The position numbers and the translations under genes are program-made. Positions 3-25,527 of a DNA stretch of 26,455 nt are shown here, one piece after another. Under the pieces are notes generated by a model, which was not told the origin of the DNA, did not search any database, and was given only the letters and a program-made list of their open reading frames with translations. Within the stretch, counting starts at the first letter, position 1. Each line of letters opens with the position of its first letter. The stretch is from an uncultured Candidatus Cloacimonadota bacterium (lineage in GTDB: Bacteria; Cloacimonadota; Cloacimonadia; Cloacimonadales; TCS61), in assembly GCA_964460095.1 (NCBI GenBank), contig CAYWPW010000001.1, positions 1-26,455 of the forward strand, given 5' to 3'.

Positions 3-1016
3 TACACAGGAGCAGCAATTTGTGCTACTTTAAGAGATGAAGTCCTGAATAGACCTGATCATATAAAAATTCTTGAACATCAACCTGTGGTGGAATTGAT
101 AAAAGATAATACCGGCAAAGTCTCGGGAGCAGTACTTTACCATCTTGAAAATAGAGAATACTTTACAGTGAAAGCAAAAGCAACTATTATCTCTACAGGT
201 GGTTTTGGCAGACTTCATATAAGAGATTTTGAAACTACAAACCATTATGGTGCAACCTGTGATGGTCCTGTGATAAGTTACAGAGCAGGAGCAAAACTTA
301 TGTATATGGATTCTGTTCAATATCATCCGACCGGAGCAATTTATCCACAGCAGATTATTGGATTTCTCTGCACTGAGAAACTCAGGTCTCTTGGTGCTCA
401 ACCTTTGAACATACAAAGTGAACTTTTTGTTAATCCTCTTGAACCCCGCGATGTTGAATCATCAGCTTTCATCAGGGAATGTTTGGAACGAAATAAAGGT
501 ATTAAAACACCTGATAACCATGTAGGTGTCTGGTTAGACACTCCCTTGATCGACCAGATAAATGGCAAGGGAACAATTCAAGCAAGTGTTCCGGCTATGG
601 TCAGACAATTTGCCAGGTTTGATGTAGATATGATTACGGAACCAATTCTGGTTTATCCAACTCTTCATTACCAGAATGGTGGAGTGGAAATAAATGCTCA
701 GTGTGAAACTAATATTCCCGGTCTTTTTGTAGCAGGTGAAGCATCCGGTGGAGTACACGGACGCAATAGATTAATGGGGAATTCACAGCTTGATATAATA
801 ATTTTTGGAAGAAGAGCCGGAAAATTTGCTGCTGATTATGCCAAAGGTGCAAAAATAGGTAAACTTAATCTGGATCATATTTATGAATATGAAAAAGAAG
901 TGAAAAAATTGGGGATCGATAAATCAAAAATTTCACCAATGGTTCTCCCTGATTATATTCCGGATGCAGTGAAAGCAAAACAACTTACAACCAAATATCA
1001 CGGAACTTTGAGATAA
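3..1016 (+). CDS. frdA: Fumarate reductase/succinate dehydrogenase-family flavoprotein (FrdA/SdhA/TfrA superfamily), 5'-truncated by the window edge, with a short C-terminus
   Basis: The frame is open from base 3 (YTGAAICATLRDEV...), so the ORF-track start at 87 is not the true start. Dicarboxylate-site motifs are present: QYHPTG, TEK, EPRD, PTLHYQNGG, GEASGGVHGRNRLMGNS. Confidence 0.85.
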   Translation, partial: YTGAAICATLRDEVLNRPDHIKILEHQPVVELIKDNTGKVSGAVLYHLENREYFTVKAKATIISTGGFGRLHIRDFETTNHYGATCDGPVISYRAGAKLMYMDSVQYHPTGAIYPQQIIGFLCTEKLRSLGAQPLNIQSELFVNPLEPRDVESSAFIRECLERNKGIKTPDNHVGVWLDTPLIDQINGKGTIQASVPAMVRQFARFDVDMITEPILVYPTLHYQNGGVEINAQCETNIPGLFVAGEASGGVHGRNRLMGNSQLDIIIFGRRAGKFAADYAKGAKIGKLNLDHIYEYEKEVKKLGIDKSKISPMVLPDYIPDAVKAKQLTTKYHGTLR

Positions 1017-1038
1017 GTTTTTTAATAAGGAGGTTATT

Positions 1039-2481
1039 TTGGGACTTGTAGATGTACAAAGGTTAAAAGAAATCGTAGGCGCAGAAAATGTAAAAGATGA
1101 CAAAGCCGATTTGTATGTATATGGTTCTGACTCATCAGTTCATCAAGCCATGCCCTGGGTAGTAGTAAGACCACACACAATAGAAGAAGTTCAAAATGTT
1201 ATGCGTTATGCAAATCCGAGGATGCTACCGGTTGTTGCCAGGGGAGCAGGCTCGGGTATGTCCGGTCAGGCTGTTCCCATCAAAGGTGGAATAGTAATGG
1301 ATTTTAAGAAAATGAATAAAATTCTTGAGATAAATCTTGAGGACACATTTGTCAGAGTTGAACCCGGTGTTGTGGATGATGATCTGAATCGTGCTTTGAA
1401 ACCACATAATGTATTCTATCCTCCAGCACCAGCTTCCAGCAGGATAGCTACGATCGGGGGAGAAATAGCCAACAATGCCAGCGGTGTGAGGTCTGTTAAA
1501 TACGGAGCTGTTCGGGATTCTGTTCTCGGTATGAGAGTGGTGCTGGCAAATGGAGATTTAATCGATGTTGGAGCTAAAACAAGAGTGCAGGCAACAGGCT
1601 ATCAGCTTGAAAGACTGATGGTTGGTTCCGAAGGCACCCTGGGTATTATTGTGGAAGCAACTCTGAAGATTGTTCCTATTCCTAAATTCAGATGCCTGGG
1701 AATAGCTAAATTCAATGAACTTGAAGATGCTGGTAATACAATTTCGGAAGTAATGTCCAGTGGGATTAATTTATCTATGCTGGAACTAATGGACAATATA
1801 GCTATTACTGCTGTTAATAAAGCTCTGGATTTGGGACTTCCGGATGTAGAAGCGATTCTTTTGTTTGAAGCTGACGGAATGGCAAAAGAAGCTGTTGATA
1901 TTGAAATCCAAAAAATAATTGAAATTTGTAAGAACCAAAAAGGTTTTGGTATCGATTTGAGTTATGATGCCAAAGAAAGAACAAAAATATTCTCCGGCAG
2001 GAAAAAATTGTTCCCATCTTTATCGAGATTTAAAGATTACTTTACTTGTGCATCTTTAGCTGATGATATGGCTGTCCCCTACTCTAAAATGGCAGAAACT
2101 GCCCAAAAGATTCATGAGATCGCTAAAAGAAATAATGTGATTATGACAGCTTACGGACACTGTGGTTCCGGATGTATGCATACCAAAATCCTGATGGATC
2201 CAAGAAAAGAAGCTCAATGGGAAGATGCCAAAAGAGCTGTATTCGAGATATATAATTATGTCAGATCAGTTGGAGGAACTACTTCCGCTGAACATGGGAT
2301 CGGAATATCAAAAGCTCCGGCATTTAAAAGAGAAAAATCTAACTCCTTAGGTGTAATGCGTGCCATAAAAAAGGCTTTAGATCCGAATAATGTATTAAAT
2401 CCCGGTAAGTTAATGGATGCACCGGATGATTGGGTTACTGCAACAAAATTGAGATATACTACAAAAAAAGGCATATTCTAA
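1039..2481 (+). CDS. FAD-linked oxidoreductase, GlcD/D-lactate (D-2-hydroxyacid) dehydrogenase family
   Basis: TTG start after AAGGAGG. Motifs ARGAGSGMSG, EPGVV, PAPASSRIATIGGEIANNASG, GSEGTLGII, GHCGSGCMH and SAEHGIG, plus DPNNVLNPGK near the C-terminus. Confidence 0.9.
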   Translation: MGLVDVQRLKEIVGAENVKDDKADLYVYGSDSSVHQAMPWVVVRPHTIEEVQNVMRYANPRMLPVVARGAGSGMSGQAVPIKGGIVMDFKKMNKILEINLEDTFVRVEPGVVDDDLNRALKPHNVFYPPAPASSRIATIGGEIANNASGVRSVKYGAVRDSVLGMRVVLANGDLIDVGAKTRVQATGYQLERLMVGSEGTLGIIVEATLKIVPIPKFRCLGIAKFNELEDAGNTISEVMSSGINLSMLELMDNIAITAVNKALDLGLPDVEAILLFEADGMAKEAVDIEIQKIIEICKNQKGFGIDLSYDAKERTKIFSGRKKLFPSLSRFKDYFTCASLADDMAVPYSKMAETAQKIHEIAKRNNVIMTAYGHCGSGCMHTKILMDPRKEAQWEDAKRAVFEIYNYVRSVGGTTSAEHGIGISKAPAFKREKSNSLGVMRAIKKALDPNNVLNPGKLMDAPDDWVTATKLRYTTKKGIF

Positions 2482-2527
2482 AGTTTTCTTTATCGAGAAT
2501 TTGAATAAGTTTTTAGGAGATTATTTC

Positions 2528-3112
2528 ATGGACTTTAAAAGAATTCAAAAATGGGATAATGAACTGAATATTTGCATTAGATGCGGATATTGCTTTGAAC
2601 AATGCCATCTTTTTAAGATTACTGGTTGGGAAACAGATGCTCCTCGTGGAAAGCTTATCTTGATCTATGGTTTAATACATGGAGAGACAAAACCATCAGA
2701 ATACATTGCAAATAAGATGTTTGAATGTTTCTATTGTAAAAGATGCGATAATAGTTGCTCAGCCGGAGTTTCCATAACTGATATTTTCACAGATGCAAGA
2801 GCTGATTTTGCGGATGCAGGTTTTGATGTTGATGGTACTACTTCAAAGACAAACGATGATTTGTGCAGCCGTTGTGGAATTTGTGTCTCAGTATGTAAAC
2901 ACGAAGCTCGCTCTCTGGATAAAGAGAATAAAAAGATTATAATTGATAAGGTTAAATGTCAGAGTTGCGGCTGCTGCGAAGCAGCATGTCCTTCCGGAGC
3001 TGCATATATTGTTGAAGGCTGGGAACTGGGAGAGAATGAATTGCGTGAAAAAGTGATCAATTTTTTAAAGGAAGATAATAATGAACCCAAAATCAGTAAT
3101 ATTTTGTTGTAG
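2528..3112 (+). CDS. Chimeric Fe-S protein: HdrC/HdrD/GlcF-type 4Fe-4S dicluster plus a 2x[4Fe-4S] ferredoxin resembling the HdrA C-terminal domain
   Basis: ATG at 2528 follows AGGAGA. Four Cys motifs: CIRCGYCFEQC, CFYCKRCDNSC, CSRCGICVSVC, CQSCGCCEAACP. Confidence 0.8.
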   Translation: MDFKRIQKWDNELNICIRCGYCFEQCHLFKITGWETDAPRGKLILIYGLIHGETKPSEYIANKMFECFYCKRCDNSCSAGVSITDIFTDARADFADAGFDVDGTTSKTNDDLCSRCGICVSVCKHEARSLDKENKKIIIDKVKCQSCGCCEAACPSGAAYIVEGWELGENELREKVINFLKEDNNEPKISNILL

Positions 3113-3479
3113 TTGGTCTTCATATCCTGGGTTACAGTTATCCGAAAGTCTTTATGAAGATCCCGGAAAACAAAACAATATAATCATAAGTATGTGCTCT
3201 GGTAGAGTTTCTGCAGAATTAATATTAGAAGCATTTAAAAATGATGCCTGGGGAGTAATGATAGCAAGTTGCCCAAAAGAGAAGTGTGAACATGATGCAA
3301 ATTACAAAACAAGAAGAAGGATTTTGTTACTTCAAAAAATGCTCGAGCAGTTAGGAATTGAACCTGCAAGAATAAAGCTTGAATGGATCGATAAAGGAGA
3401 AGCTGCTAAGCTGAAACTTGCGATCGATGATTTTTCAAATGAATTAAGAAAAATGGGACCTGTAAATATTATAAACTAG
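3081..3479 (+). CDS. mvhD: MvhD/FlpD [2Fe-2S] hydrogenase delta subunit
   Basis: FCCSWSSYPG, MCSGRV, SCPKEKCEH..N and LGIEPARIKLEWI match the MvhD family. The ORF overlaps the upstream gene by 32 nt and may be part of a fusion (see findings). Confidence 0.85.
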   Translation: MNPKSVIFCCSWSSYPGLQLSESLYEDPGKQNNIIISMCSGRVSAELILEAFKNDAWGVMIASCPKEKCEHDANYKTRRRILLLQKMLEQLGIEPARIKLEWIDKGEAAKLKLAIDDFSNELRKMGPVNIIN

Positions 3480-3492
3480 GAGTATATTTTTT

Positions 3493-4560
3493 ATGGAAAC
3501 AAAATATTTAAGACAATGGGAAAATGAACTTAATATTTGTATTAGATGTGGTTATTGTTTTGAGGGGTGCCCTGTTTTTAAGGAACTTGGCTGGGAAATA
3601 GATGGAGCAAGAGGTAAATTAATTGTAGCCTATGGATTACTGACTGGTGAGCTTGAACCTTCTGAACACATTGCAGAAAAGTTGTTTCAGTGTACTTTCT
3701 GTAGAGATTGCGTAGAAAGATGCTCAGCAGATATATCGGTGCCGGATATTATGGGAGCAGCCAGAGCTGATCTGTTTGAAGCAGGTTATTCTTACGACTC
3801 ACATAAAGAGCTCACAAAAAAAATTGAAAAGAGCGGCAATATCTTTGGAAAAGAACTTGAGCCTCCCGTATTTGAAGGTGATAAGGCGGTTCTATTAGGG
3901 TGCAGACTTGTTGAAAGAAAAGAAGATTCAGAGAAATATCTAACAATACTGGAAAAACTTGGAGTGAAAACAAAGACGTTTAATGAAACCTGCTGCGGTA
4001 TGCCATTTGCTGTTCTGGGTGATAAAAACGGTTTTAAAACTCAACAAGATAAATTTAGAGATACAATACCTGATAAAAAAGAAGAAGTAATTTGTGTTTG
4101 TACTACTTGTGTATTTTTTATCAGGGCAAAATATCCTGATTTGAAAGCTAAATATATAATTGATGAAATAGTGGAAAGATTGCCTGATTATAAAGGCAAA
4201 TTAAAAAAGTTAAACATTAAAGTAACATATCATGATCCCTGTAATGTAGCAAGGGGAATGGGTATGGTTGATGAACCCAGAGATATTCTAAAGAAAATTT
4301 GCTCGGAATTGGTTGAGATGCCTACTTACGGCAAGCAAGCTGAATGTTGCGGTGGTGGTGGGGGATTATTAGTATCAGATGATAAGTTAGCTGAAAAACT
4401 TGCTGAAAACCGTGTAGAACAAGCAATAGAAACCGGTGCAAAAGTTTTAACCACACTTTGTCCAACCTGCGAATTAAATCTTAAAAATGCTGCAGAAAAA
4501 TATAATGGAAAAATTAAAGTTAATAACCTTCTTGATCTTTTATACGATTCGATGATGTAG
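3493..4560 (+). CDS. HdrD/GlcF/TfrB-like Fe-S oxidoreductase with a 4Fe-4S dicluster and two CCG domains
   Basis: N-terminal CIRCGYCFEGCP and CTFCRDCVERC. Two complete CCG motifs: GC...TCCG...CTTC and HDPC...ECCGGGGG...CPTC. Confidence 0.88.
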   Translation: METKYLRQWENELNICIRCGYCFEGCPVFKELGWEIDGARGKLIVAYGLLTGELEPSEHIAEKLFQCTFCRDCVERCSADISVPDIMGAARADLFEAGYSYDSHKELTKKIEKSGNIFGKELEPPVFEGDKAVLLGCRLVERKEDSEKYLTILEKLGVKTKTFNETCCGMPFAVLGDKNGFKTQQDKFRDTIPDKKEEVICVCTTCVFFIRAKYPDLKAKYIIDEIVERLPDYKGKLKKLNIKVTYHDPCNVARGMGMVDEPRDILKKICSELVEMPTYGKQAECCGGGGGLLVSDDKLAEKLAENRVEQAIETGAKVLTTLCPTCELNLKNAAEKYNGKIKVNNLLDLLYDSMM

Positions 4561-4615
4561 AATGAGAATTAAAAAATTAAATTTTCTATAGATACTTTAA
4601 TAAATGGAGGCATAA

Positions 4616-5632
4616 GTGCCAAAACCTAAAGTAGCTTTTTATTGGTGTGCATCCTGTGGGGGTTGTGAAGAAGCCATTGTAGACCTGAATGAAGATATCC
4701 TGAAAGTAGTTGAATTGGTAGACATTGTGTTCTGGCCCTGTGCAATGGATTTCAAATATCAAGATGTTAGAAATATGAAAGACAATGAGATCACAGTTGC
4801 TTTTATAAATGGAGCTATCCGCACTGATGAGCAGGAAGAAATTGTACAACTTCTCAGGAAGAAAGCTCAACTTGTAATCGCTTTCGGATCTTGTTCTCAT
4901 CTGGGTGGAATCCCGGGATTAGCAAATTTCTGGGATAGAGAAACTATTTTTGAATCCTCTTATGGGAAGAATTGTCCTTCTGTTGATAACCCTAAAAGGA
5001 TTTTTCCACAAACAAAAAGTAAAGTTCCGGAAGGAGAACTGACTTTACCTGCTTTTCATAATACGGTAAAAAGCCTTGATCAGGTAATCGATGTGGATTA
5101 TTATATTCCCGGATGTTCTCCTGCACCATATTTAACAATGCAGGCGATAGAAGCTATTCTTGCTGGGGAATTACCAGAGAAAGGAACTGTTCTGGCTCCC
5201 TTAAAATCTTTGTGTGATGTTTGTGAACGTAATGATTCCAAACCGGAAAAAATTTCTCTGAATAAGATAAAAAGAATTTCCGAAGTAATAGCAGATCCTG
5301 AAAAGTGTTTTCTGGCTGAGGGGATTATCTGTTTGGGACCGGTTACCAGGGCAGGATGCGCTTCGGAAGGTAGTGGAAGATGTATCACAGCAAACATGCC
5401 ATGTAGAGGTTGTTATGGACCTCCACCAGAAGTAAAAGATGTTGGTGGAAAAATGATATCTTCTCTCGCTTCCATAGTAGGTTTGGAAGGTGAAGAAAAT
5501 ATGAGCGATGAAGATGTAGAAAAGCTTATTGATCAGATAGTTGATCCTGCCGGATATTTTTATCGCTTTTCTCTACCAGCTTCTTTATTAAGAAGAAAAA
5601 GGATGAATGATCCTGTAGCGGAGAATGAATAA
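4616..5632 (+). CDS. mvhG: Group 3c [NiFe]-hydrogenase small subunit MvhG
   Basis: GTG start after GGAGG. CASCGGC, GSCSHLGGIPG, PGCSP, CDVC, CLGPVTRAGC and PCRGCYG are present. Confidence 0.9.
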   Translation: MPKPKVAFYWCASCGGCEEAIVDLNEDILKVVELVDIVFWPCAMDFKYQDVRNMKDNEITVAFINGAIRTDEQEEIVQLLRKKAQLVIAFGSCSHLGGIPGLANFWDRETIFESSYGKNCPSVDNPKRIFPQTKSKVPEGELTLPAFHNTVKSLDQVIDVDYYIPGCSPAPYLTMQAIEAILAGELPEKGTVLAPLKSLCDVCERNDSKPEKISLNKIKRISEVIADPEKCFLAEGIICLGPVTRAGCASEGSGRCITANMPCRGCYGPPPEVKDVGGKMISSLASIVGLEGEENMSDEDVEKLIDQIVDPAGYFYRFSLPASLLRRKRMNDPVAENE

Positions 5633-5633: not shown

Positions 5634-7097
5634 ATGGCTAAAAAAATAACAATAGATCCGATTACTAAATTAGAAGGTCACGGTAAAATAGAAATTTTCC
5701 TCGATGATGATGGAGATGTTAAGAATGCATATTTACAGGTTCCTGAATTGAGGGGATTCGAGCAATTCTGCGTGGGACGACCGGTAGAAGAACTGGCAAG
5801 AATAACTCCCCGCATTTGCGGTGTTTGCCCTACAACTCATCATCTGTGTTCAACTAAAACACTCGATGCTGTTTATAATGTTACACCAACAGATACCGCT
5901 GTAAAACTCAGACGACTCATCAACGATGCTTTTATTGCAGAAGATCATCTGCTTCATTTCTTCTTCCTGGGTGGTCCTGATTTTGTGGTCGGACCGGATG
6001 CTCCTCCCGGAGAAAGAAATATTCTGGGTGTTATCGGTAAGGTCGGTATTGAAATCGGTAAAAAAGTTATCGATATGAGAAGAAGGCTGCGAAGTATTAT
6101 CACCTATCTTGGTGGAAGAGTGATTCATCCTGTATGTGGTTTACCTGGCGGTATTTCAAAAGGATTACCGGAAGATCAGCGTTTAGCTTTTTTGAAAGTT
6201 GCTAAAGATGCCGTGGAATTTTCTAAGTTCTGTTTGCAGGTATTTGATGACATCGTTCTAAAAAATGATACTTACCTCGATTTAATTGTGGGTGATATTT
6301 TCAAACACCAAACTTATTACATGGGTCTGGTTGATGAAAATAACAAAGTTGATCTCTATGACGGGAAGATTCGAGTAGTTGATCCGAATGGAAAAGAATT
6401 TGTTAAATTTGAAGCAAAGGATTATCTGGATCATATTGTCGAGCATGTAGAACCCTGGAGTTATATTAAATTCCCATATTTAAAAAATATCGGTTGGAAG
6501 GGTTTTGTTGATGGAATCGACAGTGGTGTTTACCGTGTTGCTCCCCTGGCAAGACTCAATGCTGCTGATGGCATGAAAACCCCTCTGGCGCAGGCTGAAT
6601 ATGAAAAAATGTATGCTACCCTGGGAGGGAAACCTGCTCATAATACATTAGCTTTTCACTGGGCAAGATTGATAGAGGTTATGTATGTTTCTGAAGAGTT
6701 AGTTCAACTTCTTGAAGATAAATCAATCACAAATCCTGATATCAGGAATCTTCCTACAGAAACTCCAAGTGAAGGTGTTGGTGTTATCGAAGCTCCCCGG
6801 GGAACTTTGTTCCATCATTATAAAACAGATAAAAACGGTATGGTAACAAATGTAAATCTGATAGTGGCTACTGTTAATAATTCTGCTGCTATTTCCATGT
6901 CTATTGCCAAAGCTGCAAAAGGGCTGATCAGCAAAGGTAAAGTCGATGATGGACTTTTGAATATGGTGGAAATGGCTTTTCGATCTTATGATCCTTGTCT
7001 TGCTTGTGCAACGCATTCTTTGCCGGGGAAAATGCCTCTTATCGTAAATCTTCGCGATAACAACAAGGATATAGTTAAATCTATTAGAAGAGATTAG
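5634..7097 (+). CDS. mvhA: Group 3c [NiFe]-hydrogenase large subunit MvhA
   Basis: IDPITKLEGHGKI N-terminus, L1 motif RICGVC, EAPRG, and L2 motif FRSYDPCLACATH followed by a cleavable C-terminal extension. ATG 5634 is preferred over 5625. Confidence 0.93.
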   Translation: MAKKITIDPITKLEGHGKIEIFLDDDGDVKNAYLQVPELRGFEQFCVGRPVEELARITPRICGVCPTTHHLCSTKTLDAVYNVTPTDTAVKLRRLINDAFIAEDHLLHFFFLGGPDFVVGPDAPPGERNILGVIGKVGIEIGKKVIDMRRRLRSIITYLGGRVIHPVCGLPGGISKGLPEDQRLAFLKVAKDAVEFSKFCLQVFDDIVLKNDTYLDLIVGDIFKHQTYYMGLVDENNKVDLYDGKIRVVDPNGKEFVKFEAKDYLDHIVEHVEPWSYIKFPYLKNIGWKGFVDGIDSGVYRVAPLARLNAADGMKTPLAQAEYEKMYATLGGKPAHNTLAFHWARLIEVMYVSEELVQLLEDKSITNPDIRNLPTETPSEGVGVIEAPRGTLFHHYKTDKNGMVTNVNLIVATVNNSAAISMSIAKAAKGLISKGKVDDGLLNMVEMAFRSYDPCLACATHSLPGKMPLIVNLRDNNKDIVKSIRRD

Positions 7098-12070: not shown

Positions 12071-12107
12071 AATTCTTGTTCCCAAGTTTGACTTGGGAAC
12101 AAGAATT
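12071..12107. repeat. REP-like palindrome, family member 2 (perfect 17-bp stem)
   Basis: AATTCTTGTTCCCAAGT-TTG-ACTTGGGAACAAGAATT starts immediately after the fumB stop codon. It shares the CTTGTTCCCA...TGGGAAC core with 22128-22154. Confidence 0.8.
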
Positions 12108-16772: not shown

Positions 16773-18455
16773 ATGGCACTTAAACGTTATGAAATTGATG
16801 AATTAGAACACAAAATAGTTCATGTGAAAAAAAGAGGGATGGATTTAATACGCGATCCAATGCTGAATAAAGGTTCAGCATTTTCCGATAAAGAAAGAAA
16901 TGAATTCAATCTATATGGATTAGTTCCTCCGCACGTATCTACATTTGAAGAGCAGATAAAAAGGGTTACTGAGAATTATCGCAGAAAAGACACAGATATT
17001 GGAAAGTATATTTTTTTAGAAGCATTGCACGACCGGAACGAAATCTTGTATTATGCATTACTGCTGAGAAACCTGGAAGAATTGACTCCAATTGTTTACA
17101 CTCCCACTGTTGGAACTGCATGTCAGCAATTTGGTCATCTTTTCCGACGAGCAAGAGGAATGTATATCTCCGCTAAAGCAAAAGGAGATTTCAAAAAAAG
17201 AATTAATAATTGGGCAGAAGATGAGGTCGATGTAATCGTCGTTACTGATGGCAGCAGAATTCTTGGTCTTGGAGACCTGGGAGCAAGCGGAATTGGAATT
17301 CCAATCGGGAAACTCTCTTTATATGTTGCTTGTGCCGGAATCTATCCTTCCAAAAAACTACCGGTAGTAATCGATGTGGGAACAGATAATGACGCTTTAT
17401 TGAAAGATCCTTTGTATTTAGGAGGAAAACACCCTCGGATAAAAGGAGAAGAATTTTACGAAATAATCGATGAATTCATCGTTGCAGCTCATGAACGCTG
17501 GCCTAAAGCATTAATTCAATTTGAGGATTTCACGAATGACCACGCCTTTCCATTATTAAATAAATATCGCGAAAAACTTCTTTGCTTCAATGATGATATT
17601 CAAGGAACAGGCGGAGTTGCTCTGGCAGGACTTCTGGCAGCAATGAGGATAACCAAAGAAAAATTAAATGAACAGAAAATCATCTTTCTTGGTGCCGGTT
17701 CAGCAGCAGTTGGCATTGCAGATATGATAGTTGCCGGAATGATGGAAGAAGGATTATCCAAAGAAGAAGCACGAAAAAGATTCTGGTTCATCGATAGTAA
17801 AGGTCTCGTAACATATAAACGTGGTGATAAACTGGCAGAACATAAAATCGCATATGCCAGAAATGAGAAATTCCAGAAAACACTTCTCGAAGTTGTAAGA
17901 TCAGTCAAACCGACAGTATTAATGGGTGTGAGCAAACAAACAGGAGCATTTAATGAACAAGTAGTTCGGGAAATGAAAAAACATGTAGATACTCCTATCA
18001 TCTTTGCATTATCGAATCCAACATCCAAATCGGAATGCACGCCCACACAGGCTTATGAATGGACTGATGGAAATGTGGTTTATGCCAGCGGCAGTCCTTT
18101 TGATCCCATCAAATATAAAGGAAAAACTTATGCCACAGGTCAGGGAAATAATATGTATATTTTCCCGGGTGTTGGTCTGGGAGCTATTGTCTGTCAGGCT
18201 ACAAAAATAACGGATTCAATGTTTTATATAGCAGCAAAAACTTTAGCAAACATGGTTAAAGAAGAGGATTTAAAAAAAGGTAGAATTTATCCTGATTTGA
18301 AAGATATCAGAGAAATTTCAGCACAAATTGCTTTTGCTGTTTGTGAAGTTGCATATGCCAATGGCATTGCCTGGACAAAAAGACCGGAAAACCTTCTCGA
18401 ATATATTAAAAGCAAGATGTTCCAGCCGGTTTACCTGCCTTATAAAGCGGTGTGA
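16773..18455 (+). CDS. maeA: Malic enzyme, large MaeA/SfcA (eukaryote-like) type, probably NAD-dependent
   Basis: PMLNKGSAF, PIVYTPTVG, VTDGSRILGLGDLG, GKLSLY, QFEDF, FNDDIQGTG, GAGSAA, LSNPT and GQGNN. Confidence 0.93.
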   Translation: MALKRYEIDELEHKIVHVKKRGMDLIRDPMLNKGSAFSDKERNEFNLYGLVPPHVSTFEEQIKRVTENYRRKDTDIGKYIFLEALHDRNEILYYALLLRNLEELTPIVYTPTVGTACQQFGHLFRRARGMYISAKAKGDFKKRINNWAEDEVDVIVVTDGSRILGLGDLGASGIGIPIGKLSLYVACAGIYPSKKLPVVIDVGTDNDALLKDPLYLGGKHPRIKGEEFYEIIDEFIVAAHERWPKALIQFEDFTNDHAFPLLNKYREKLLCFNDDIQGTGGVALAGLLAAMRITKEKLNEQKIIFLGAGSAAVGIADMIVAGMMEEGLSKEEARKRFWFIDSKGLVTYKRGDKLAEHKIAYARNEKFQKTLLEVVRSVKPTVLMGVSKQTGAFNEQVVREMKKHVDTPIIFALSNPTSKSECTPTQAYEWTDGNVVYASGSPFDPIKYKGKTYATGQGNNMYIFPGVGLGAIVCQATKITDSMFYIAAKTLANMVKEEDLKKGRIYPDLKDIREISAQIAFAVCEVAYANGIAWTKRPENLLEYIKSKMFQPVYLPYKAV

Positions 18456-18715: not shown

Positions 18716-20443
18716 ATGGCAAGCAAAGCAAGTATTGATTTTTACAAGAATTTGAAGGAAATGTCTTCGATTCGAGCTGTGGCGGAAACGATAATGCTAA
18801 ATCCAAAAGTTCGGAAAGTAAATGCACGTGAAGCTTATGAAATGGCAATGAAGCAACCGGGAGTAGCAGTTACGGATTTAGAAATTTATCCTCCTTTTGC
18901 TGAACATTTGGGACTGCCAAAAGGTGCAAAAGTGCTTAATGACTGTCATGGCAAAATTATTGGACGCACAGCAAAAGCAAGAGTGTTCTATAACAGAATA
19001 CCGGGAGCTGAAAAAAAGAAAGTCGAAGGTGATGCCAGGGAAGCAATGTTTCAACTTGAACATTACGATTTGATAAAATGCGAGGCTGTATTGGGTTTGG
19101 ATCCTGATCTTATGATAAAAGCAACTTATGTGACTACAACTACAGATGCCAGCAATGTTTTTAATTGGTTATGCAATTTCGCTCCGCTTGAGTTGATGAA
19201 AGAAGAATATGAAAAAAGCAAACCTCTTCCAATTCAGGATGTTATCATTGTTGCATTTAATGAATGGACCTGCGACGATCCGTATTATCACAATGTTGGT
19301 GCTCCTCAAATCGGTCTGGTCGATGAAACCCAGAACGTTATTTTCAATTTTGGAATGCGTTATTTTGGTGAGCGTAAAAAAGGTACTTTAACTCTTGCCT
19401 GGACATCTGGTATGAGGTTGGGAATGGCTGCCTGCCACGGTGGTATCAAAGAAATTGATTTCTCAGGTTGTGCAGATGAATATAAAAAATTAGGCAAGAA
19501 ATCGATTGCTTTCTATGGTCTTTCCGGTACAGGAAAATCCTCACACACAAACTCAATCGATAATGGCGGTACATTACCTGCAGGATTCGAAAAATATTGC
19601 CTTCACGATGATGCTTTCCAGATCGATACCGATGATAAAGTATGTCGTGTCTGGGAACCTGCTTTGTTCGATAAAACAGATAGCAGAGATCTTGATAATC
19701 CTGATTGGAAATACTTGATTGCTCTTATGAATCATGCGATGATAGAACGAAATGGAAAATTATTACCTCTTGGATTGGATGTTCGACAGGCAAATGGAAG
19801 AGCACTACTGGATCGAGACCTTTTGGGTAACTGGGTAAATAGATGCAGTTTCCCGGAAGCTTTAACCTGGCTTATGAAGGATACAGCACTTCCTCCGGTT
19901 CATAAATATAAAGATAAATACCTGGCAGTTGCCATGGGTGCAGCTCTTATCACAAAAAGAAGCAGAGCGGAAAATGTTACGGAAGAAGACCTCAAGAAAT
20001 TGGTTTTTGAACCTTTTGCAAATCCTTTCAGGGTTTATGAACTTTACAAAGATGTGGAATCATTCATCAAGGTTCTGGAAACCGGAGCGGATTGTTACAC
20101 GTTCAATTCTGCAGGATACTGGAAATCTTCAGATGATGATTTGGACGACGTCAAATTGCAAACATCTTTAACTTTGCAAACAGGAATCTTAATGGAACAG
20201 CTTGAATGGGAAGATTGGGACATGCTGCCCGGTGCGATGATTCCTACAAAAGAATCTGTTGAAAAAATTCTTCCCGGTTATTATGAGAGATATCATCCTG
20301 ATAAGCGTGAAAATATGGATGAATATGTTGTACTTCTGAAAGATCGTTTCGAGCAAAGACGAGAGTATTTGAAATCATCCGATGTGGCAACTAAACCGGA
20401 ACTACTTGAAAAGCTTGTAAACGCATTGCAGATCAAAGAATAA
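18716..20443 (+). CDS. pckA: Phosphoenolpyruvate carboxykinase (ATP), divergent type
   Basis: ATG 18716 follows GGAGG. RYFGERKKG, ACHGG, P-loop GLSGTGKS and the metal-binding HDD are present. Confidence 0.8.
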   Translation: MASKASIDFYKNLKEMSSIRAVAETIMLNPKVRKVNAREAYEMAMKQPGVAVTDLEIYPPFAEHLGLPKGAKVLNDCHGKIIGRTAKARVFYNRIPGAEKKKVEGDAREAMFQLEHYDLIKCEAVLGLDPDLMIKATYVTTTTDASNVFNWLCNFAPLELMKEEYEKSKPLPIQDVIIVAFNEWTCDDPYYHNVGAPQIGLVDETQNVIFNFGMRYFGERKKGTLTLAWTSGMRLGMAACHGGIKEIDFSGCADEYKKLGKKSIAFYGLSGTGKSSHTNSIDNGGTLPAGFEKYCLHDDAFQIDTDDKVCRVWEPALFDKTDSRDLDNPDWKYLIALMNHAMIERNGKLLPLGLDVRQANGRALLDRDLLGNWVNRCSFPEALTWLMKDTALPPVHKYKDKYLAVAMGAALITKRSRAENVTEEDLKKLVFEPFANPFRVYELYKDVESFIKVLETGADCYTFNSAGYWKSSDDDLDDVKLQTSLTLQTGILMEQLEWEDWDMLPGAMIPTKESVEKILPGYYERYHPDKRENMDEYVVLLKDRFEQRREYLKSSDVATKPELLEKLVNALQIKE

Positions 20444-20448
20444 ATTAT

Positions 20449-20476
20449 GGGCAGACGTAAGTCTGCCTTTTTTTTT
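20449..20476 (+). terminator. Intrinsic (Rho-independent) terminator
   Basis: GGCAGAC-GTAA-GTCTGCC stem with a GNRA loop, followed by T9, a few nt after the pckA stop. Confidence 0.9.
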
Positions 20477-20661: not shown

Positions 20662-20707
20662 AAAAAAATCAATTTTTGCAAAAAAAATATAAAAAAGGGA
20701 GGAACAA

Positions 20708-22003
20708 ATGCCACGATTGAGAGAGAGAATCAGAACAAGAATTCCAAAAATTCGAGCTCTGATTAAAGATGAGATTTTGAGTAAACATGCGGGTGAAACC
20801 GTTGGAGATGTTACTGTCAAACAGGTTTATGGTGGTATGAGGGGAGTAATCGGTTTAGTTTGTAATTCTTCTTATGTAGATCCATATAAGGGTTTACACA
20901 TTAGAGGAATTCCTCTTGATGAATTAACCGAAATAATTCCGGAAGAGATGTTTTACCTGCTTTGTACCGGAGAAATTCCTGCAAAAGAAGATTTGGAAAA
21001 ATTGCAGGAAGAAATGCGTCTGCGTTCCGAAGTTCCCGAACATGTGTGGGATGTTCTGCGAGCTTTACCCAAAGATACACATCCGATGACAATGTTCAGC
21101 ATTGCAATTATGGCCATGGAAGGAAGTTCCATTTTCAAAGAAAAATATGCTGCTGGAATGAGAAAAGCGGATTACTGGGAAGCCACTCTGGATGATTCTT
21201 TAGAAATCCTGGCAAAGCTGCCTACAATCGCTGCCGGTATTTACAGGATAAGATACTCTATGGGAGATCTGATACCTTATGATAAATCTCTGGACTGGGG
21301 TGGTAATTATGCAAAAATGCTTGGTGTTCCCGATCCTAATGGAGAATTCGCAAAATTGGTAAGACTGTACCTGGTTCTTCATTGTGACCATGAAGGCGGA
21401 AATGTAAGCGCATTTACAGCCCGAGTTGTAAATTCCGCACTTTCAAATCTTTATTATGCTGTTTCTGCCGGTTTGAACGGACTTGCAGGACCTTTGCATG
21501 GCTTGGCAAATCAAGAATGTTTGAAATTTGTTTTATCGATTCAGGAAAAATTTGATAAAGCTCCTTCCAAAAAAGAGCTGGTAGATTTCGTATTATCAAC
21601 TTTGAAAGTTGGTAAAGTTGTTCCCGGATATGGTCATGCAGTTTTGAGGGCAACTGACCCGAGGTTTACAGCATTTTATAAGTTTGGTGAAAAGCATTGT
21701 GCCAAAGAAGAAACTTTCCTGATTGTGAAGAGACTCTTTGAAGTAGTTCCGGATATTTTGAAGGAATACGGTGGAGGAAAAATAGCTGATCCATATCCGA
21801 ATGTTGATGCTATTTCGGGCTCACTTTTGTTCAAATATGGATTAACCATGTTCGATTATTACACTGTTATGTTCGGTGTTTCCAGGGTTTTGGGATTCTG
21901 TGCCCAGGCAATAATGGCTCGTGGTCTTCAGGCTCCTATCATCAGACCAAAAAGTGTAACAAATGAGTGGATATTCGATAAATTAGGAATTAAGAAAAAA
22001 TAA
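20708..22003 (+). CDS. gltA: Citrate synthase, eukaryote/Geobacter-like Si type
   Basis: YGGMRG, DHEGGNVSA, NGLAGPLHGLANQE, VVPGYGHAVLRATDPR, PNVDA and FGVSR match the mitochondrial-type signature. Confidence 0.93.
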   Translation: MPRLRERIRTRIPKIRALIKDEILSKHAGETVGDVTVKQVYGGMRGVIGLVCNSSYVDPYKGLHIRGIPLDELTEIIPEEMFYLLCTGEIPAKEDLEKLQEEMRLRSEVPEHVWDVLRALPKDTHPMTMFSIAIMAMEGSSIFKEKYAAGMRKADYWEATLDDSLEILAKLPTIAAGIYRIRYSMGDLIPYDKSLDWGGNYAKMLGVPDPNGEFAKLVRLYLVLHCDHEGGNVSAFTARVVNSALSNLYYAVSAGLNGLAGPLHGLANQECLKFVLSIQEKFDKAPSKKELVDFVLSTLKVGKVVPGYGHAVLRATDPRFTAFYKFGEKHCAKEETFLIVKRLFEVVPDILKEYGGGKIADPYPNVDAISGSLLFKYGLTMFDYYTVMFGVSRVLGFCAQAIMARGLQAPIIRPKSVTNEWIFDKLGIKKK

Positions 22004-22010
22004 TCATTCG

Positions 22011-22154: not shown

Positions 22155-22179
22155 AAAATGAGGTAACAGGAAAAAAAAT

Positions 22180-24114
22180 ATGGGTTTCAATATTATCCAG
22201 AAAATTATAAAATCTCATCTTATCGAAGGAGAGATGGAAGCTGGTAAAACTGTCGGCATCAAAATCGACCAGACCTTAACTCAGGATGCTACGGGAACAA
22301 TGGCTTACCTTGAATTCGAAGCAATGGAAATTTCTGAACCAAAAACCGAAATTTCCGTGAGTTATGTAGACCATAATACCAGCCAGATGGGATTTGAAAA
22401 TGCTGATGACCACAAATATCTGCAAACAATAGCAAAAAAATTCGGATTATATTACTCCAGAGCAGGAAATGGGATTTGTCATCAGGTTCACCTGGAAAGA
22501 TTTGGGATTCCGGGAAATACGCTTTTAGGTTCAGATAGCCATACTCCAACCGGAGGCGGAATGGGAATGATGGCTATCGGTTCCGGTGGTCTGGATGTTG
22601 CCAGGGCTATTTCTGGTTTTCCTTTTTACATTACTTTTCCCAGAGTTCTGAAAATAAATTTGACCGGTAAATTAACTGGCTGGGTTTCTGCGAAAGATAT
22701 AATTTTGTATGTTTTGGAACTTCTTACTACAAAAGGAAATGTGGGTTGGATGATCGAATTCGGTGGTGTAGGAGTAAAAACCCTGAGTTTACCGGAACGG
22801 GCAACAATCACAAATATGGGTGCTGAATTGGGAGTGACCACCTCGATTTTTCCAAGCGATGAAATTACTTTATCTTTTCTTAAAGCCCAAGATAGAGAGG
22901 ATGGTTGGAAGGTACTGAAGGCAGATAACGAGGCAAAATACGACAGAATCATTGATATCGATCTTTCTACTCTCGAACCCAGAGTTGCCACACCGCACAG
23001 CCCGGGAAATATAAAACTGGTTAGTGAATTAACCGGAATGAAGGTTGATCAGGTTTGTATTGGAAGCTGTACAAATTCATCATTTAAAGATTTAATGATA
23101 GTAGCTGAAATGCTAAAAGGGAAAAAGTTACCTGCAGGTATGAGTCTTGTAATTGCTCCCGGCTCAAAACAGGTTTTGGAAATGATAACTAAAAATGGAG
23201 CTTTATCAGATTTAATCTCGTTTGGTGCGAGGATAATGGAATCTGCTTGTGGATTTTGCATCGGCAATGGTCAAGCACCTGCAACAGATGCTGTATCGGT
23301 TCGAACTAATAATCGTAATTTCAAAGGACGTTCCGGAACACAGTCCGCAGGCATTTATCTGGTTAGCCCGCAAACCGCAGCAGCTTGTGTAATAACCGGT
23401 GTTATGACCGATCCCAGAGATCTTGGGATGGAACCTCCGGAAATTACATTACCAGAAAAGTTCAAAATCGATGATAGTATGATAATTCCTCCAGCAAAGC
23501 AGAAAGAGGTAATTAAGATTTATCGCGGACCAAATATCGGAAATCCACCCACAAACAAACCTCTGGTTGATGAATTTTTTGGAGAAATAACTTTAAAGGT
23601 TGGAGATAAAATTACTACAGACCACATAATGCCTGCTGGGATCAGGTTGAAATATCGCTCAAATATTCCCAGATATTCCGAATTTGTTTTTGAACCTGTT
23701 GACTCCACATTTCCAGCAAGATGCCTTTCCAACAAAGAGAAAGAAAAAGCAAATATCATTGTTGCGGGATTAAGTTATGGTCAGGGTTCATCCCGGGAAC
23801 ACGCTGCGATTTGTCCTTCATTTTTGGGTGTGAAAGCAGTTATTGCAAAATCCATTGAAAGAATTCACTGGGCAAATCTTATAAACTTTGGCATTATTCC
23901 CATGATTTTTACAGATGAATCAGATTTTGATAAAATCGAACAAAATGATGAATTAGAAATGACTGACTTAATTCAAACTATCAGAAACAAGAGCAGTTAC
24001 ATCATCAAAAACAAATCTAGAAACATAGAATTTGAAGTGAAATTGGAACTGAGCTTCAGAGAACGAGAAATATTAATCGCAGGTGGAGTTTTAAACATAA
24101 TAAAAATCAGTTGA
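22180..24114 (+). CDS. acn: Aconitate hydratase (compact ~640-aa type)
   Basis: QDATG, GICHQ, DSHT, cluster Cys in IGSCTN and ACGFCIG, NRNFKGR, TTDHI and GQGSSRE. It sits between gltA and icd. Confidence 0.88.
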   Translation: MGFNIIQKIIKSHLIEGEMEAGKTVGIKIDQTLTQDATGTMAYLEFEAMEISEPKTEISVSYVDHNTSQMGFENADDHKYLQTIAKKFGLYYSRAGNGICHQVHLERFGIPGNTLLGSDSHTPTGGGMGMMAIGSGGLDVARAISGFPFYITFPRVLKINLTGKLTGWVSAKDIILYVLELLTTKGNVGWMIEFGGVGVKTLSLPERATITNMGAELGVTTSIFPSDEITLSFLKAQDREDGWKVLKADNEAKYDRIIDIDLSTLEPRVATPHSPGNIKLVSELTGMKVDQVCIGSCTNSSFKDLMIVAEMLKGKKLPAGMSLVIAPGSKQVLEMITKNGALSDLISFGARIMESACGFCIGNGQAPATDAVSVRTNNRNFKGRSGTQSAGIYLVSPQTAAACVITGVMTDPRDLGMEPPEITLPEKFKIDDSMIIPPAKQKEVIKIYRGPNIGNPPTNKPLVDEFFGEITLKVGDKITTDHIMPAGIRLKYRSNIPRYSEFVFEPVDSTFPARCLSNKEKEKANIIVAGLSYGQGSSREHAAICPSFLGVKAVIAKSIERIHWANLINFGIIPMIFTDESDFDKIEQNDELEMTDLIQTIRNKSSYIIKNKSRNIEFEVKLELSFREREILIAGGVLNIIKIS

Positions 24115-24180
24115 GAATCCACAAAATCGAGGAATTTCGTAAGTGATGAGTAATAATAATAAAATATTTGGAGGAGAAAA

Positions 24181-25527
24181 TTGATGTATCAAAAAATTGA
24201 AGTACCATCAAATGGAAAAAAAATAACCTTTAAAGATGGAAAATTAAATGTTCCGGATAATCCCATAATCCCGTTTATTGAAGGTGATGGAATGGGTCCT
24301 GATATCTGGAGAGCGACCAAGAGAGTGCTTGATGCAGCAGTGGAAAAAGCCTTTGCAGGAAAGAAAAAAATTATCTGGATGGAAATTCATGCAGGATTAT
24401 CTGCTCTCAAAAAATATGGGAATGATGATATTTTACCTGAAGATACGCTCAATGCGATCAAGGATTTTAAAGTTGCTATCAAAGGACCTCTTACCACTCC
24501 GGTTGGCGGATTTGATTATGTGTGCCTGGTTTGTTCCAAAGAGCAAAATGGAGAGGATGGCAAAAGACCTGAGAAATGCGTTAAATGCGGCTCGGAATTT
24601 GTTACCAAAAGATTTCGTTCTCTCAATGTGAGTTTAAGACAGATTCTTGATTTATATGCCTGTGTGCGTCCCGTAAGATGGTACAAAGGTGTTCCTTGTC
24701 CTGTGAAAAGACCGGATAAATTGGATGTGATCGTTTTCAGGGAAAATACGGAAGATGTTTATGCAGGAATCGAATTTCAGGAAGGAACAGAAGAAGCTAA
24801 AAAAATTATCAATTTCTTAATTGATGAAATGAAAAAAAATGTTCGCATGGACAGCGGAATTGGCATCAAACCTATTTCTATCACAGGCACAAAAAGGTTG
24901 GTCAGAAAAGCGATTAATCACGCCATAGAGCAGAACCTGCCAAGTGTTACTCTGGTTCATAAAGGCAATATCATGAAGTTCACGGAAGGTGCATTCAGAG
25001 ATTGGGGCTACGAACTGGCAAAAGAGGAATACAGGGATAAAATCGTAACAGAGCAGGAACTATGGGATGAATTTGACGGCAAAATGCCGGAAGGAAAAAT
25101 CCTCATAAAAGATAGAATTGCCGACCAGACATTCCAGCAGGTTTTGCTTCGTCCTGATGAATATAGTGTGTTTGCCACACCGAATCTGAATGGCGATTAC
25201 CTTTCCGATGCCTGTGCTGCCCAGGTGGGTGGACTCGGTCTTGCACCGGGTGCTAACATTGGCGATGAAATCGCCCTCTTTGAAGCGACCCACGGAACTG
25301 CTCCCAAATATACAGGAATGGATAAAGTTAATCCCAGCTCCCTGATTCTTTCCGGTGTAATGATGCTCAAATATATGGGTTGGATAAAGGCTGGTGAAAT
25401 GATCGAAAATGCTTTGGAGAAAACCATTTCTCAGAAAACAGTTACTTACGACCTGGAACGACAGATGGAAGGTGCTACAAAACTGAAAACTTCTGAATTT
25501 GGAGAAAAAATAATCGAAAATATGTAA
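24181..25527 (+). CDS. icd: Isocitrate dehydrogenase (NADP, homodimeric type) with a CxxC...CxxC insertion
   Basis: [45 protein letters not shown], and NADP determinants HGTAPKY and TYDLER. Start is TTG 24181 or ATG 24184. Confidence 0.95.

Follow-up and report, generated by a model that had tools for sequence, protein, structure and literature searches.

Whether a bacterium of the phylum Cloacimonadota could run the tricarboxylic acid (TCA) cycle backwards on electrons from H2, with citrate synthase (CS) instead of ATP citrate lyase (ACL) at the citrate step, is the question raised by a 26,455-nt contig of an uncultured member of this phylum (CAYWPW010000001.1 of assembly GCA_964460095.1), the whole of which is referred to here as the window. 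A preliminary description of this DNA proposed such an H2-driven reversed oxidative TCA (roTCA) cycle because genes for a fumarate reductase-type flavoprotein, sucCD, fumAB, mdh, gltA, acn, icd and maeA are co-oriented with those for a hydrogenase. All of them do lie on the + strand, as do all 23 convincing genes in the window; the list itself was incomplete, as it omitted a GlcD-like dehydrogenase, a ferredoxin, MvhD, a CCG-domain protein, a second malate dehydrogenase (MDH), a LarA-like protein, a cysteate synthase and two TPR proteins. As set out below, an H2-driven reductive half of the cycle is well supported and has already been published for a sister genus; the citrate synthase gene beside acn and icd in an H2-linked cluster is the new element, in an arrangement conserved in several related contigs, and on sequence grounds this CS may work in either direction.

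Contigs identical or nearly identical to the window originate from Ace Lake, Antarctica, and include material from JGI metagenome 3300023241, which is “Ace Lake #474” in an earlier study of the lake (Williams et al., 2021, PMC8542988). The contig L001 belongs to the same population (99.96% nucleotide identity to the window), and two congeners, L013 and L016, show approximately 90% nucleotide identity to this population. The full-length flavoprotein shares 97% identity with that of the Cloacimonadota metagenome-assembled genome (MAG) CSMAG_2978, 93% with that of a Cloacimonadota MAG from the Black Sea and 74% with that of Ca. Celaenobacter antarcticus. The gene coordinates and lengths given for the ten Ace Lake MAGs of Williams et al. 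(2021) differ from those of the cluster in the window, so that this population seems to be without a detailed prior description; Table S1 of that study lists two MAGs of the family TCS61. Genes were identified by NCBIfam, Pfam and PDB sequence searches of the window proteins. A transmembrane scan found no membrane-like segments in these proteins, except for a single hydrophobic run (KD19 2.02) within the malic enzyme, a soluble protein, in agreement with the earlier statement that no membrane anchor subunit is encoded here. Together with its relatives, the window appears to be the downstream 26 kb of an all-soluble supercluster of approximately 45 kb in a member of the Ace Lake Cloacimonadota.

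The first gene of the window (3–1016) encodes the 3′ two-thirds of a FrdA/TfrA-like fumarate reductase flavoprotein, the 5′ end being cut off by the window start; the full-length gene (L001:4302–5969) encodes 555 aa. TfrA is the best-matching NCBIfam model, although it is matched far below its cut-off (319 vs. 718 bits), and the protein aligns to SdhA/FrdA structures. The active-site sequences QYHPTG, TEKLR, PTLHYQNGG and GRNRL, which contain the HPT His, the proton-donor Arg and the substrate-binding His and Arg, are invariant across 126–127 orthologs; since L-aspartate oxidase shares the same residues, fumarate as the substrate is deduced from the FrdB partner and the gene context. The position equivalent to His44 of Escherichia coli FrdA, the site of covalent FAD attachment, is occupied by Asn133 (SNSMMAQGG), and Asn is found there in all 131 of the orthologs compared. 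Loss of covalent FAD reportedly abolishes succinate oxidation and leaves fumarate reduction in place, and this replacement therefore favors fumarate reduction over succinate oxidation. On textbook potentials (H2, −414 mV; fumarate, +30 mV; ferredoxin, approximately −500 mV), bifurcation of electrons from H2 to fumarate and ferredoxin should be strongly exergonic, and its reverse should require extreme conditions. Directly upstream, L001 carries frdB (230 aa, with one 2Fe-2S and two 4Fe-4S motifs). As separate observations, residues 1–94 of FrdA (L001:4302–4583) form a charged, cysteine-free extension before the FAD-binding domain, and this FrdA family is without the C-terminal Succ_DH_flav_C domain of classical SdhA/FrdA proteins.

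The hydrogenase is encoded by mvhG (4616–5632; small subunit, VhuG model, 187.5 bits) and mvhA (5634–7097; large subunit, VhuA model, 416 bits), followed by a gene for a maturation endopeptidase (7106–7561; TIGR00072, 108.6 bits, above cut-off). The Ni-Fe ligand motifs RICGVCP and DPCLACATH of MvhA are intact, its cleavable C-terminal extension is present, and no Tat signal was found at the N-terminus of MvhG. VhuA, VhuG and VhuD are the best NCBIfam matches of MvhA, MvhG and MvhD, all below the equivalog cut-offs. The assignment to group 3c made in the preliminary description is in keeping with these Mvh/Vhu-type subunits, the MvhD partner, the predicted cytoplasmic location and the L1 and L2 CxxC motifs, which make the enzyme group 3c-like, and orthologs have been classed in group 3c (Williams et al., 2021, PMC8542988).

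Between frdA and mvhG lie four genes for electron carriers or redox enzymes. The first (1039–2481) encodes a GlcD-family FAD-dependent D-2-hydroxyacid dehydrogenase (TIGR00387, 401 bits, below cut-off), whose best PDB matches are glycolate oxidase and LctD of the bifurcating lactate dehydrogenase and whose gene is confined to the clade of the window. It is followed by a ferredoxin gene (2528–3112) with two 4Fe-4S dicluster domains, the N-terminal part being GlcF/HdrC-like and the C-terminal part HdrA-ferredoxin-like, and by mvhD, also named FlpD (3081–3479; HdrA2 C-terminal and VhuD models, PF02662), a 2Fe-2S electron-transfer subunit that is the third mvhD copy of the extended cluster. The fourth gene (3493–4560) encodes an HdrD/GlcF-like CCG-domain iron-sulfur protein of 355 aa (TfrB model, 166.7 bits; PF02754 twice), present in L067 and absent from L014 and L016. 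This protein aligns to residues 131–485 of archaeal TfrB, that is, to its C-terminal half, so the counterpart of TfrB is split into FrdB (230 aa) and the CCG protein (355 aa), whereas TfrB proper is a single fused protein.

The remaining subunits lie upstream, beyond the start of the window. In L001, frdA is preceded by hdrA3 (truncated where the contig stops), a pair of genes for FrhB-like FeS proteins and frdB, and in L013 and L016 the order hdrB-hdrA1-mvhD-mvhD-hdrA2-hdrA3 is found. Two further metagenome contigs, L093 and L094, whose HdrA1 is 90–95% identical, add hdrC, a gene for a four-helix-bundle protein and a korD-A-B-A′-B′-G operon, with the kor genes directly upstream of hdrC. The best models for these kor genes are those of 2-oxoglutarate enzymes, so that the 2-oxoglutarate:ferredoxin oxidoreductase (OGOR) that the preliminary description suggested looking for in the flanks was located in close relatives; neither the window nor L001 contains a kor gene. 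By synteny, the order upstream of the window would be korD-A-B-A′-B′-G, hdrC, hdrB, hdrA1, mvhD, mvhD and hdrA2, as in the congeners, and then hdrA3, the two FrhB-like genes and frdB, as in L001. The Mvh-Hdr subunit set is complete only when MvhA, MvhG and MvhD of the window, HdrA3 of L001 and HdrC, HdrB, HdrA1 and HdrA2 of the congeners are pooled. HdrB matches the models for HdrB and for the CCG subunit SdhE/MfrE of type-E fumarate reductases equally well (169.5 and 168.3 bits), which offers a precedent for direct electron transfer from a CCG protein to FrdB. The two paralogous FeS proteins between hdrA3 and frdB (L001:1256–3536; 389 and 368 aa) share an FrhB/FdhB-like domain and a CxxCxxCxxxCPxCYCxxC motif, are specific to this clade and perhaps serve as an extra electron input.

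To gauge how widely this linkage is kept, the best 80 genome loci retrieved with FrdA and the best 80 metagenome loci retrieved with HdrA1 were compared, each with flanks of up to 10 kb; since many of the contigs are short, the resulting counts are lower bounds. FrdB-FrdA is accompanied by HdrA in 46 of the 80 FrdA-seeded loci, by kor in 33 and by mvhA in 15, and half or slightly more of the HdrA-seeded loci carry an FrdA of the same family (41/80) or kor (40/80). The korDABG-hdrCBA-mvhD-frdBA module occurs in MAGs of Cloacimonadota, Marinimicrobia/Fidelibacterota, Aminicenantes, Delongbacteria and Gallionellales/Nitrosomonadales, and its MvhAG electron-input part is variable, being present in some lineages only. 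Duplicated kor alpha and beta genes are seen in the clade of the window and in a second lineage (L094:886–5761; also L105–L107 and L113), and a single korDABG set in most other loci. The order frdB-frdA-hdrB..hdrA-mvhD-korDABG is also found in MAGs of iron-oxidizer-type Betaproteobacteria (Gallionella, Sideroxydans, Nitrosomonadales and Hydrogenophilales; L073–L092), whose FrdA is 58–60% identical to the family in the window and has Asn at the flavinylation site, with no hydrogenase in the flanks.

From these data, an H2-linked reductive half-cycle from oxaloacetate to 2-oxoglutarate emerges as the best-supported mechanism and as a moderately probable one. In this scheme, the cytoplasmic Mvh-type [NiFe]-hydrogenase would oxidize H2 and pass electrons through MvhD to the flavin of HdrA, where each pair would be split: one electron would travel downhill, by way of HdrC/HdrB or the CCG protein and then FrdB, to FrdA with its non-covalent FAD, for the reduction of fumarate to succinate, and the second would travel uphill to ferredoxin, which in its reduced form would drive the adjacent 2-oxoglutarate synthase. 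With SucCD, fumarase and the MDHs supplying the carbon steps, H2 would drive the reductive conversion of oxaloacetate to 2-oxoglutarate, and the separately transcribed gltA-acn-icd genes would close the ring. The hydrogenase, Hdr proteins and fumarate reductase would act as one physical complex, bifurcating electrons and running in the reductive direction. The same mechanistic reading has been published for homologous clusters (PMC8542988, PMC6315080).

Several points weigh against this scheme. The window itself contains no Hdr gene, and no overlap of at least 300 nt was found that would join L093 or L094 to L001 through hdrA3, so that the kor linkage is carried over to this population from its congeners by synteny. 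No complex of the Mvh-Hdr-Frd kind is known to have been purified, so that a thiol/disulfide shuttle may operate in place of direct electron transfer; the window does encode a TfrB-like CCG protein. Hydrogenases of group 3c, like Hdr complexes, can in principle work in both directions. In addition, methylmalonyl-CoA transcarboxylase-type genes lie beside the cluster in relatives, which fits succinate or propionate metabolism better than CO2 fixation, and Cloacimonadota are generally described as fermenters.

The carbon steps of the reductive half are encoded by sucC (7684–8853; NF001913, 584 bits vs. a cut-off of 370) and sucD (8857–9729; NF004230, 434.8 vs. 336), the alpha (10659–11504; NF004885, 415.8 bits) and beta (11516–12070; NF005310, 281.8 bits) subunits of a two-subunit class I fumarase, and two LDH-like MDH paralogs. 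The first of these, mdh1 (12126–13049), is taken to start at an ATG behind AAGGAGG and is divergent (PRK06223, 336 bits; below the TIGR01763 cut-off), with the loop sequence GKVRKPNTLRLE; in relatives it is always paired with mdh2 and larA. The second, mdh2 (13058–13990; TIGR01763, 400.6 vs. 351.9 bits), has the Arg specificity residue in GKPRLPGMSRED.

The genes that would close the ring are gltA (20708–22003), a eukaryote-like citrate (Si)-synthase (NF007128, 502 vs. 344 bits), acn (22180–24114), an aconitase of the PRK07229/TIGR01342 type, and icd (24184–25527), an NADP-dependent isocitrate dehydrogenase of the homodimeric type with 447 aa (TIGR00183, 674.5 vs. 567 bits). The gltA product is full length, and its catalytic His, His and Asp, aligned to the Thermosulfidibacter takaii enzyme, lie in GPLHGLANQE, PGYGHAVLR and PNVDAISG. 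Its best PDB match is the T. takaii CS 8XXD (429.8 bits, 49% identity), one of two synthases with a proven roTCA function, and the Desulfurella acetivorans enzyme scores about the same against it as the pig, human and plant mitochondrial synthases. Because ordinary mitochondrial and heterotroph synthases belong to this subfamily too, membership carries no information on direction; roTCA citrate synthases have themselves been reported to be kinetically ordinary.

The earlier statement that neither aclAB nor ccs/ccl occurs in the window was borne out. Genuine AclB and AclA queries matched only sucC and sucD in tblastn searches of the window, at 26–30% identity, and the citryl-CoA lyase models scored far below their cut-offs on gltA; neither a citryl-CoA synthetase nor a citryl-CoA lyase is present in the window. 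Among the 184 loci compared, in which the flanks of the relatives could be read to approximately 10 kb on each side, ACL was found only in L184, a contig with archaeal markers that carries an acn-aclB-aclA-idh cassette and was the source of the queries. Related contigs of other origin (L176, L178 and L179, all from other sites) share the block mdh1-mdh2-larA-(maeA)-gltA-acn-icd-TPR, in L180 a different citrate synthase gene is flanked by acn and icd, and L182, reached through an aconitase homolog, has a gltA-acn-icd-TPR cluster. Such aconitase homologs were also used in a search for the acn-aclBA-icd scaffold of Celaenobacter, which instead led to the gltA-acn-icd-TPR cluster (P0171) and the archaeal-marker contig (P0214). 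Since clades with the same reductive module carry either ACL or CS beside acn and icd, as illustrated by the acn-aclB-aclA-idh genes of Ca. Celaenobacter and Ca. Stygibacter (Williams et al., 2021, PMC8542988), the citrate-handling gene at this slot appears to be exchangeable. A CS that does the work of ACL would account for this exchange, as would, no less readily, a change of role from autotrophy to biosynthesis. In a Cloacimonadota-like relative labelled “Armatimonadota bin.262” (L173:7217–8692), the gltA-acn-icd genes stand apart from the other cluster genes. A DDE transposase gene precedes gltA there by approximately 1.3 kb, and acn and icd are separated by an additional gene, whose 353-aa product belongs to no known family.

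The cluster does not appear to be a single operon. An intrinsic-terminator-like hairpin followed by a T-run (20449–20468, + strand) lies behind the pck-like gene and is the only regulatory signal that stood out in the scans, and gaps of 176–264 nt precede the pck-like gene, gltA and acn; on this basis at least two transcription units are predicted. The terminator and the 264-nt gap divide gltA-acn-icd, which would form a separate unit, from the reductive genes. An Rfam scan of the window gave no match, and no promoters are proposed because sigma-70 matches were no more common than in shuffled sequence (60 vs. 61.9). A perfect, strandless palindrome (12071–12107; AATTCTTGTTCCCAAGT CAA ACTTGGGAACAAGAATT, with 17-bp arms and a 3-nt loop) occupies most of the 55-nt gap between fumB and mdh1 and could be an operator, an RNA-processing or RNA-stabilizing hairpin, or an attenuator.

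The readings divide over how, and whether, the ring is closed. Slightly short of an even chance is given to a branched (horseshoe) TCA pathway, in which gltA-acn-icd would run only forward to 2-oxoglutarate and glutamate in a fermenter that uses fumarate and H2 as an energy-conserving sink; organic C4 acids or amino acids would be fermented, H2 (or reducing equivalents) would reduce fumarate to succinate by way of Mvh-Hdr-Frd, co-reduced ferredoxin would sustain an Rnf sodium gradient, and OGOR and SucCD would operate oxidatively and yield ATP. Such a metabolism suits Cloacimonadota, which have been described as amino-acid and sugar fermenters with Rnf, and the malic enzyme, the malate racemase-like protein and the D-2-hydroxyacid dehydrogenase of the cluster point to the handling of organic acids; the transcarboxylase-type genes after the cluster in L176 and L179 and a transcription unit of its own for gltA-acn-icd are also in its favor. 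However, the tight and widely conserved kor-hdr-frd linkage suggests that ferredoxin is made for OGOR, which would thus act reductively, and the sister genus combines the same module with ACL, which would be senseless in a purely branched cycle. That all enzymes work reductively, as in roTCA autotrophy, is doubtful. CS would then cleave citrate to acetyl-CoA and oxaloacetate without ATP, pulled by the H2-driven removal of oxaloacetate and by carboxylation of acetyl-CoA through pyruvate:ferredoxin oxidoreductase (PFOR) at high CO2. This view is consistent with the presence of the full enzyme set in one co-oriented cluster, the conservation of the mdh1-mdh2-larA-(maeA)-gltA-acn-icd block (L176, L178, L179, L180 and L182), the interchange of ACL and gltA at the citrate slot relative to the sister genus and the archaeal contig, the match of CS to the roTCA enzyme of T. 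takaii and the near-absence of ACL from the loci compared. Furthermore, reductive and oxidative routes to 2-oxoglutarate would be redundant unless the ring were closed, and Frd looks unidirectional. Two MDH paralogs are present in the cluster, and high MDH and CS activities are reportedly hallmarks of the roTCA cycle. On the other hand, the CS subfamily takes in mitochondrial enzymes at nearly equal score, gltA-acn-icd is also the standard biosynthetic route of anaerobes to glutamate, and the terminator and gap separate these genes from the reductive ones. Of the H2-driven roTCA cycle as first proposed, the link between the hydrogenase and the reductive half is supported by the invariant Asn and the conserved korDABG-hdrCBA-mvhD-frdBA module, whereas the CS subfamily does not indicate the direction of CS and gltA-acn-icd would form a unit of its own.

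Two further readings have smaller chances. A classical reductive TCA (rTCA) cycle with ACL encoded elsewhere in the genome, as in Ca. Celaenobacter, and with CS reserved for heterotrophic growth, is improbable: Ca. Celaenobacter antarcticus, with its 74%-identical FrdA, does carry kor-hdr-tfr-mvh together with acn-aclB-aclA-icd on another scaffold, and a later survey reports citrate synthase in Celaenobacter MAGs too, but acn and icd adjoin gltA rather than aclBA in the clade of the window, so that a second acn-aclBA-icd cassette would be needed, and no ACL was seen within the approximately 10 kb readable on each side of the loci of this clade. Least probable is oxidative operation, in which succinate, formed for example from propionate, would be oxidized to fumarate and its electrons confurcated with those of reduced ferredoxin onto protons, Mvh releasing H2 in syntrophy. 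Cloacimonadota have been linked to syntrophic propionate oxidation, Hdr/Mvh complexes are in principle reversible and transcarboxylase-type genes are found near the cluster in relatives; the flavinylation His, whose absence is known to cripple succinate oxidation, is nevertheless missing in all orthologs, and confurcation from +30 mV to H2 would, by our estimate, require extreme fumarate/succinate ratios together with very low H2. Moreover, no capacity for propionate oxidation was found in the Ace Lake Cloacimonadota (Williams et al., 2021, PMC8542988).

The H2-linked reductive half-cycle may be extended by a shunt through D-malate. Behind mdh2, the window encodes a LarA-family nickel-pincer 2-hydroxyacid racemase (13990–15327), nearest to malate racemases: its best PDB match is the malate racemase Mar2, its best family is LarAH6, though below cut-off (354.6 vs. 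500 bits), and the motifs GGHR, EPHY..GGAK and QNH are visible. Homologs of larA lie within Mvh/Hdr/Frd clusters of two further lineages, in the order frdA-glcD-PEPCK(GTP)-fd-mvhD-larA in L019, where PEPCK denotes phosphoenolpyruvate (PEP) carboxykinase, and adjoining mvhGA-...-hdrCBA-mvhD-frdBA-kor-sucCD in L106. It is plausible, if speculative, that a D-2-hydroxyacid, probably D-malate, is tied to both the racemase and the Hdr/Mvh electron system. The GlcD-like dehydrogenase, with the ferredoxin and MvhD, might reduce oxaloacetate to D-malate, which the LarA-like racemase would convert to L-malate; oxaloacetate would thereby be kept extremely low, pulling citrate synthase backwards. This shunt is suggested by two observations: larA-like genes recur within such clusters in three lineages, and L019 has the gene order glcD-PEPCK-fd-mvhD-larA. 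Taken as a whole, a cold-adapted Cloacimonadota bacterium that fixes CO2 by an ACL-free reversed TCA cycle, with both hard steps powered by one soluble Mvh-Hdr-Frd-OGOR bifurcating assembly and possibly with the D-malate shunt, is an unlikely possibility.

Other genes of the window bear less directly on the cycle. An NAD-dependent malic enzyme (maeA; 16773–18455; NF010052, 769.7 bits) is followed by a gene (18716–20443) that the preliminary description named pckA. Membership of the PEPCK_ATP family holds for this divergent protein, which exceeds the Pfam gathering score (33.7 vs. 26.5 bits) and has the P-loop GLSGTGKS and HDDA; its identity as PckA is unproven, since the NCBIfam score is far below cut-off (77.7 vs. 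369) and no PDB sequence match was found, and it is best regarded as a possible PEP carboxykinase. An AlphaFold2 model made without an alignment was unusable (pLDDT, 35.7). The pck-like slot is variable among relatives; in L176 it is filled by a 616-aa protein that is unrelated to the window protein and matches no family.

A cysteate synthase gene (15408–16733; TIGR03844, 422 vs. 325 bits; PDB 9k3c, 290 bits) lies in the stretch of lowest GC content in the window (approximately 0.33). The syntenic clusters of L176, L178 and L179 lack the gene, an 85%-identical ortholog in a relative sits in an unrelated neighborhood, and close homologs are mostly bacterial, many of them fused to a PAPS-reductase domain. 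It is therefore rejected as a sign of coenzyme M (CoM), and hence of a shuttle of CoM and coenzyme B (CoB) thiols between Hdr and Tfr, and is probably a lineage-specific insertion unrelated to the cycle, with a role perhaps in sulfonolipid or sulfonate synthesis. In L176 (15599–20389) and L179 (14501–19021), genes for an MmdA-like carboxyltransferase and for a biotin protein resembling PycB/OadA come after the TCA cluster, with a HEPN/nucleotidyltransferase pair between them; these genes hint that the cluster may be connected with methylmalonyl-CoA/propionate metabolism or with the carboxylation of pyruvate. Two TPR-repeat proteins, encoded after sucD (9753–10577) and after icd (25542–26213), are MamA-like, have no signal or transmembrane segment and occupy the same syntenic places in the related clusters of several species; they may hold the soluble enzymes together as scaffolds. 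The co-oriented cluster stops at the second of them, beyond which lies, on the opposite strand, a gene for a Fic/RhuM-family protein (26286–26455 of the window; L007:10745–11740), and after it come genes for an aminotransferase and YbjQ.

If CS does run backwards, the roTCA cycle, known from a few bacteria in culture, most of them thermophiles, would extend to a widespread phylum of uncultured bacteria in cold sulfidic water, and would be tied to an explicit energy-coupling device. Whatever its direction, kor-hdr-mvhD-frdBA is a testable candidate source, through fumarate-accepting bifurcation, of low-potential ferredoxin for 2-oxoglutarate synthase in anaerobes and microaerophiles, and the window organism is a good source of genes, as the system is wholly soluble and readily assayed with H2 as the donor. 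The occurrence of ACL-type and CS-type clusters in one phylum also provides a natural experiment on the exchange of the citrate-cleavage step.

Parts of this arrangement are seen in several known systems. Hydrogenotrophic methanogens reportedly have an MvhADG-HdrABC complex, and Methanothermobacter a thiol:fumarate reductase, TfrAB; homologs of MvhA, MvhG, MvhD, HdrA, HdrB, HdrC and TfrA are shared with them, all soluble and with H2 as the donor. The archaeal equivalog models are, however, matched far below their cut-offs by the proteins of the window's clade, and this bacterium shows no sign of CoM or CoB. Since its genes are merged into one cluster with kor, a direct path from Hdr to Frd is suggested rather than a diffusible heterodisulfide. 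Hydrogenobacter thermophilus has a soluble five-subunit NADH-dependent fumarate reductase (Miura, 2008, as summarized in PMC13147460), which is likewise membrane-free and dedicated to the reductive TCA cycle, and which differs, as far as that summary describes it, in its NADH donor, its scattered genes and the lack of a hydrogenase or HdrA. In tubeworm symbionts, kor, tfr and flx-hdr have been proposed to form an electron-bifurcating assembly with NADH as the input (Rubin-Blum et al., 2019, PMC6315080), an idea repeated, with a note of co-expression, in a 2026 survey; the rTCA clusters of these symbionts and of Thioflavicoccus mobilis are also discussed in PMC13147460. These Gammaproteobacteria share with the window's clade an AB-type soluble fumarate reductase and an OGOR co-located with HdrABC (korABCD and tfrAB interspersed with flxABCD-hdrABC), and the hypothesis that fumarate is the high-potential acceptor and the ferredoxin of OGOR the low-potential product. 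They differ in that NADH (FlxABCD) rather than H2 (MvhAG) is the input, in having type II ACL and in being sulfur oxidizers.

The fumarate reductases of D. acetivorans and T. takaii are, to our knowledge, not linked to Hdr or Mvh. In these roTCA organisms (Mall, 2018; Nunoura, 2018; CS structures 8XU1/8XU2/8XXC–8XXF, bioRxiv 10.1101/2024.11.06.622199), the eukaryote-like CS subfamily, OGOR, Frd, SucCD, class I fumarase and MDH are shared with the window's clade, again with no ACL in the cluster; they are cultured thermophiles with labelling and enzyme evidence, whereas the window organism comes from a cold sulfidic lake and is known from its genes alone. A literature search found no paper proposing roTCA for Cloacimonadota, and in a 2025 survey of the phylum rTCA genes were rare, MvhADG-HdrABC was a feature of clade B only and PFOR was widespread; the sequences of the window's clade compared here contain no PFOR genes.

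The closest system is that of Ca. Celaenobacter antarcticus/polaris, from the same lake and the same phylum, for which an H2-driven reverse TCA cycle with a kor-hdr-tfr-mvh cluster and ACL has been proposed (Williams et al., 2021, PMC8542988); the preliminary description likewise mentions reports of H2-linked reverse-TCA capacity in Cloacimonadota MAGs. The order korABC(D)-hdrCB-hdrA-hdrA-mvhD-tfrB-tfrA-mvhG-mvhA (L021) is shared, FrdA is 74–75% and MvhA and MvhG are 74–76% identical to the window proteins, and the same Mvh/Hdr link of H2 to fumarate reduction and OGOR was put forward. In Ca. Celaenobacter, acn-aclB-aclA-icd, with a monomeric isocitrate dehydrogenase (IDH) of 752 aa, lies on a separate scaffold, and its authors reported no MDH and found citrate synthase in none of the ten MAGs. 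By contrast, the window combines gltA-acn-icd, with an IDH of 447 aa, and two MDH paralogs with the hydrogenase genes in one cluster, and its clade additionally carries a third hdrA gene, a pair of FrhB-like FeS proteins and, inserted between frdA and mvhG, glcD-fd-mvhD-CCG.

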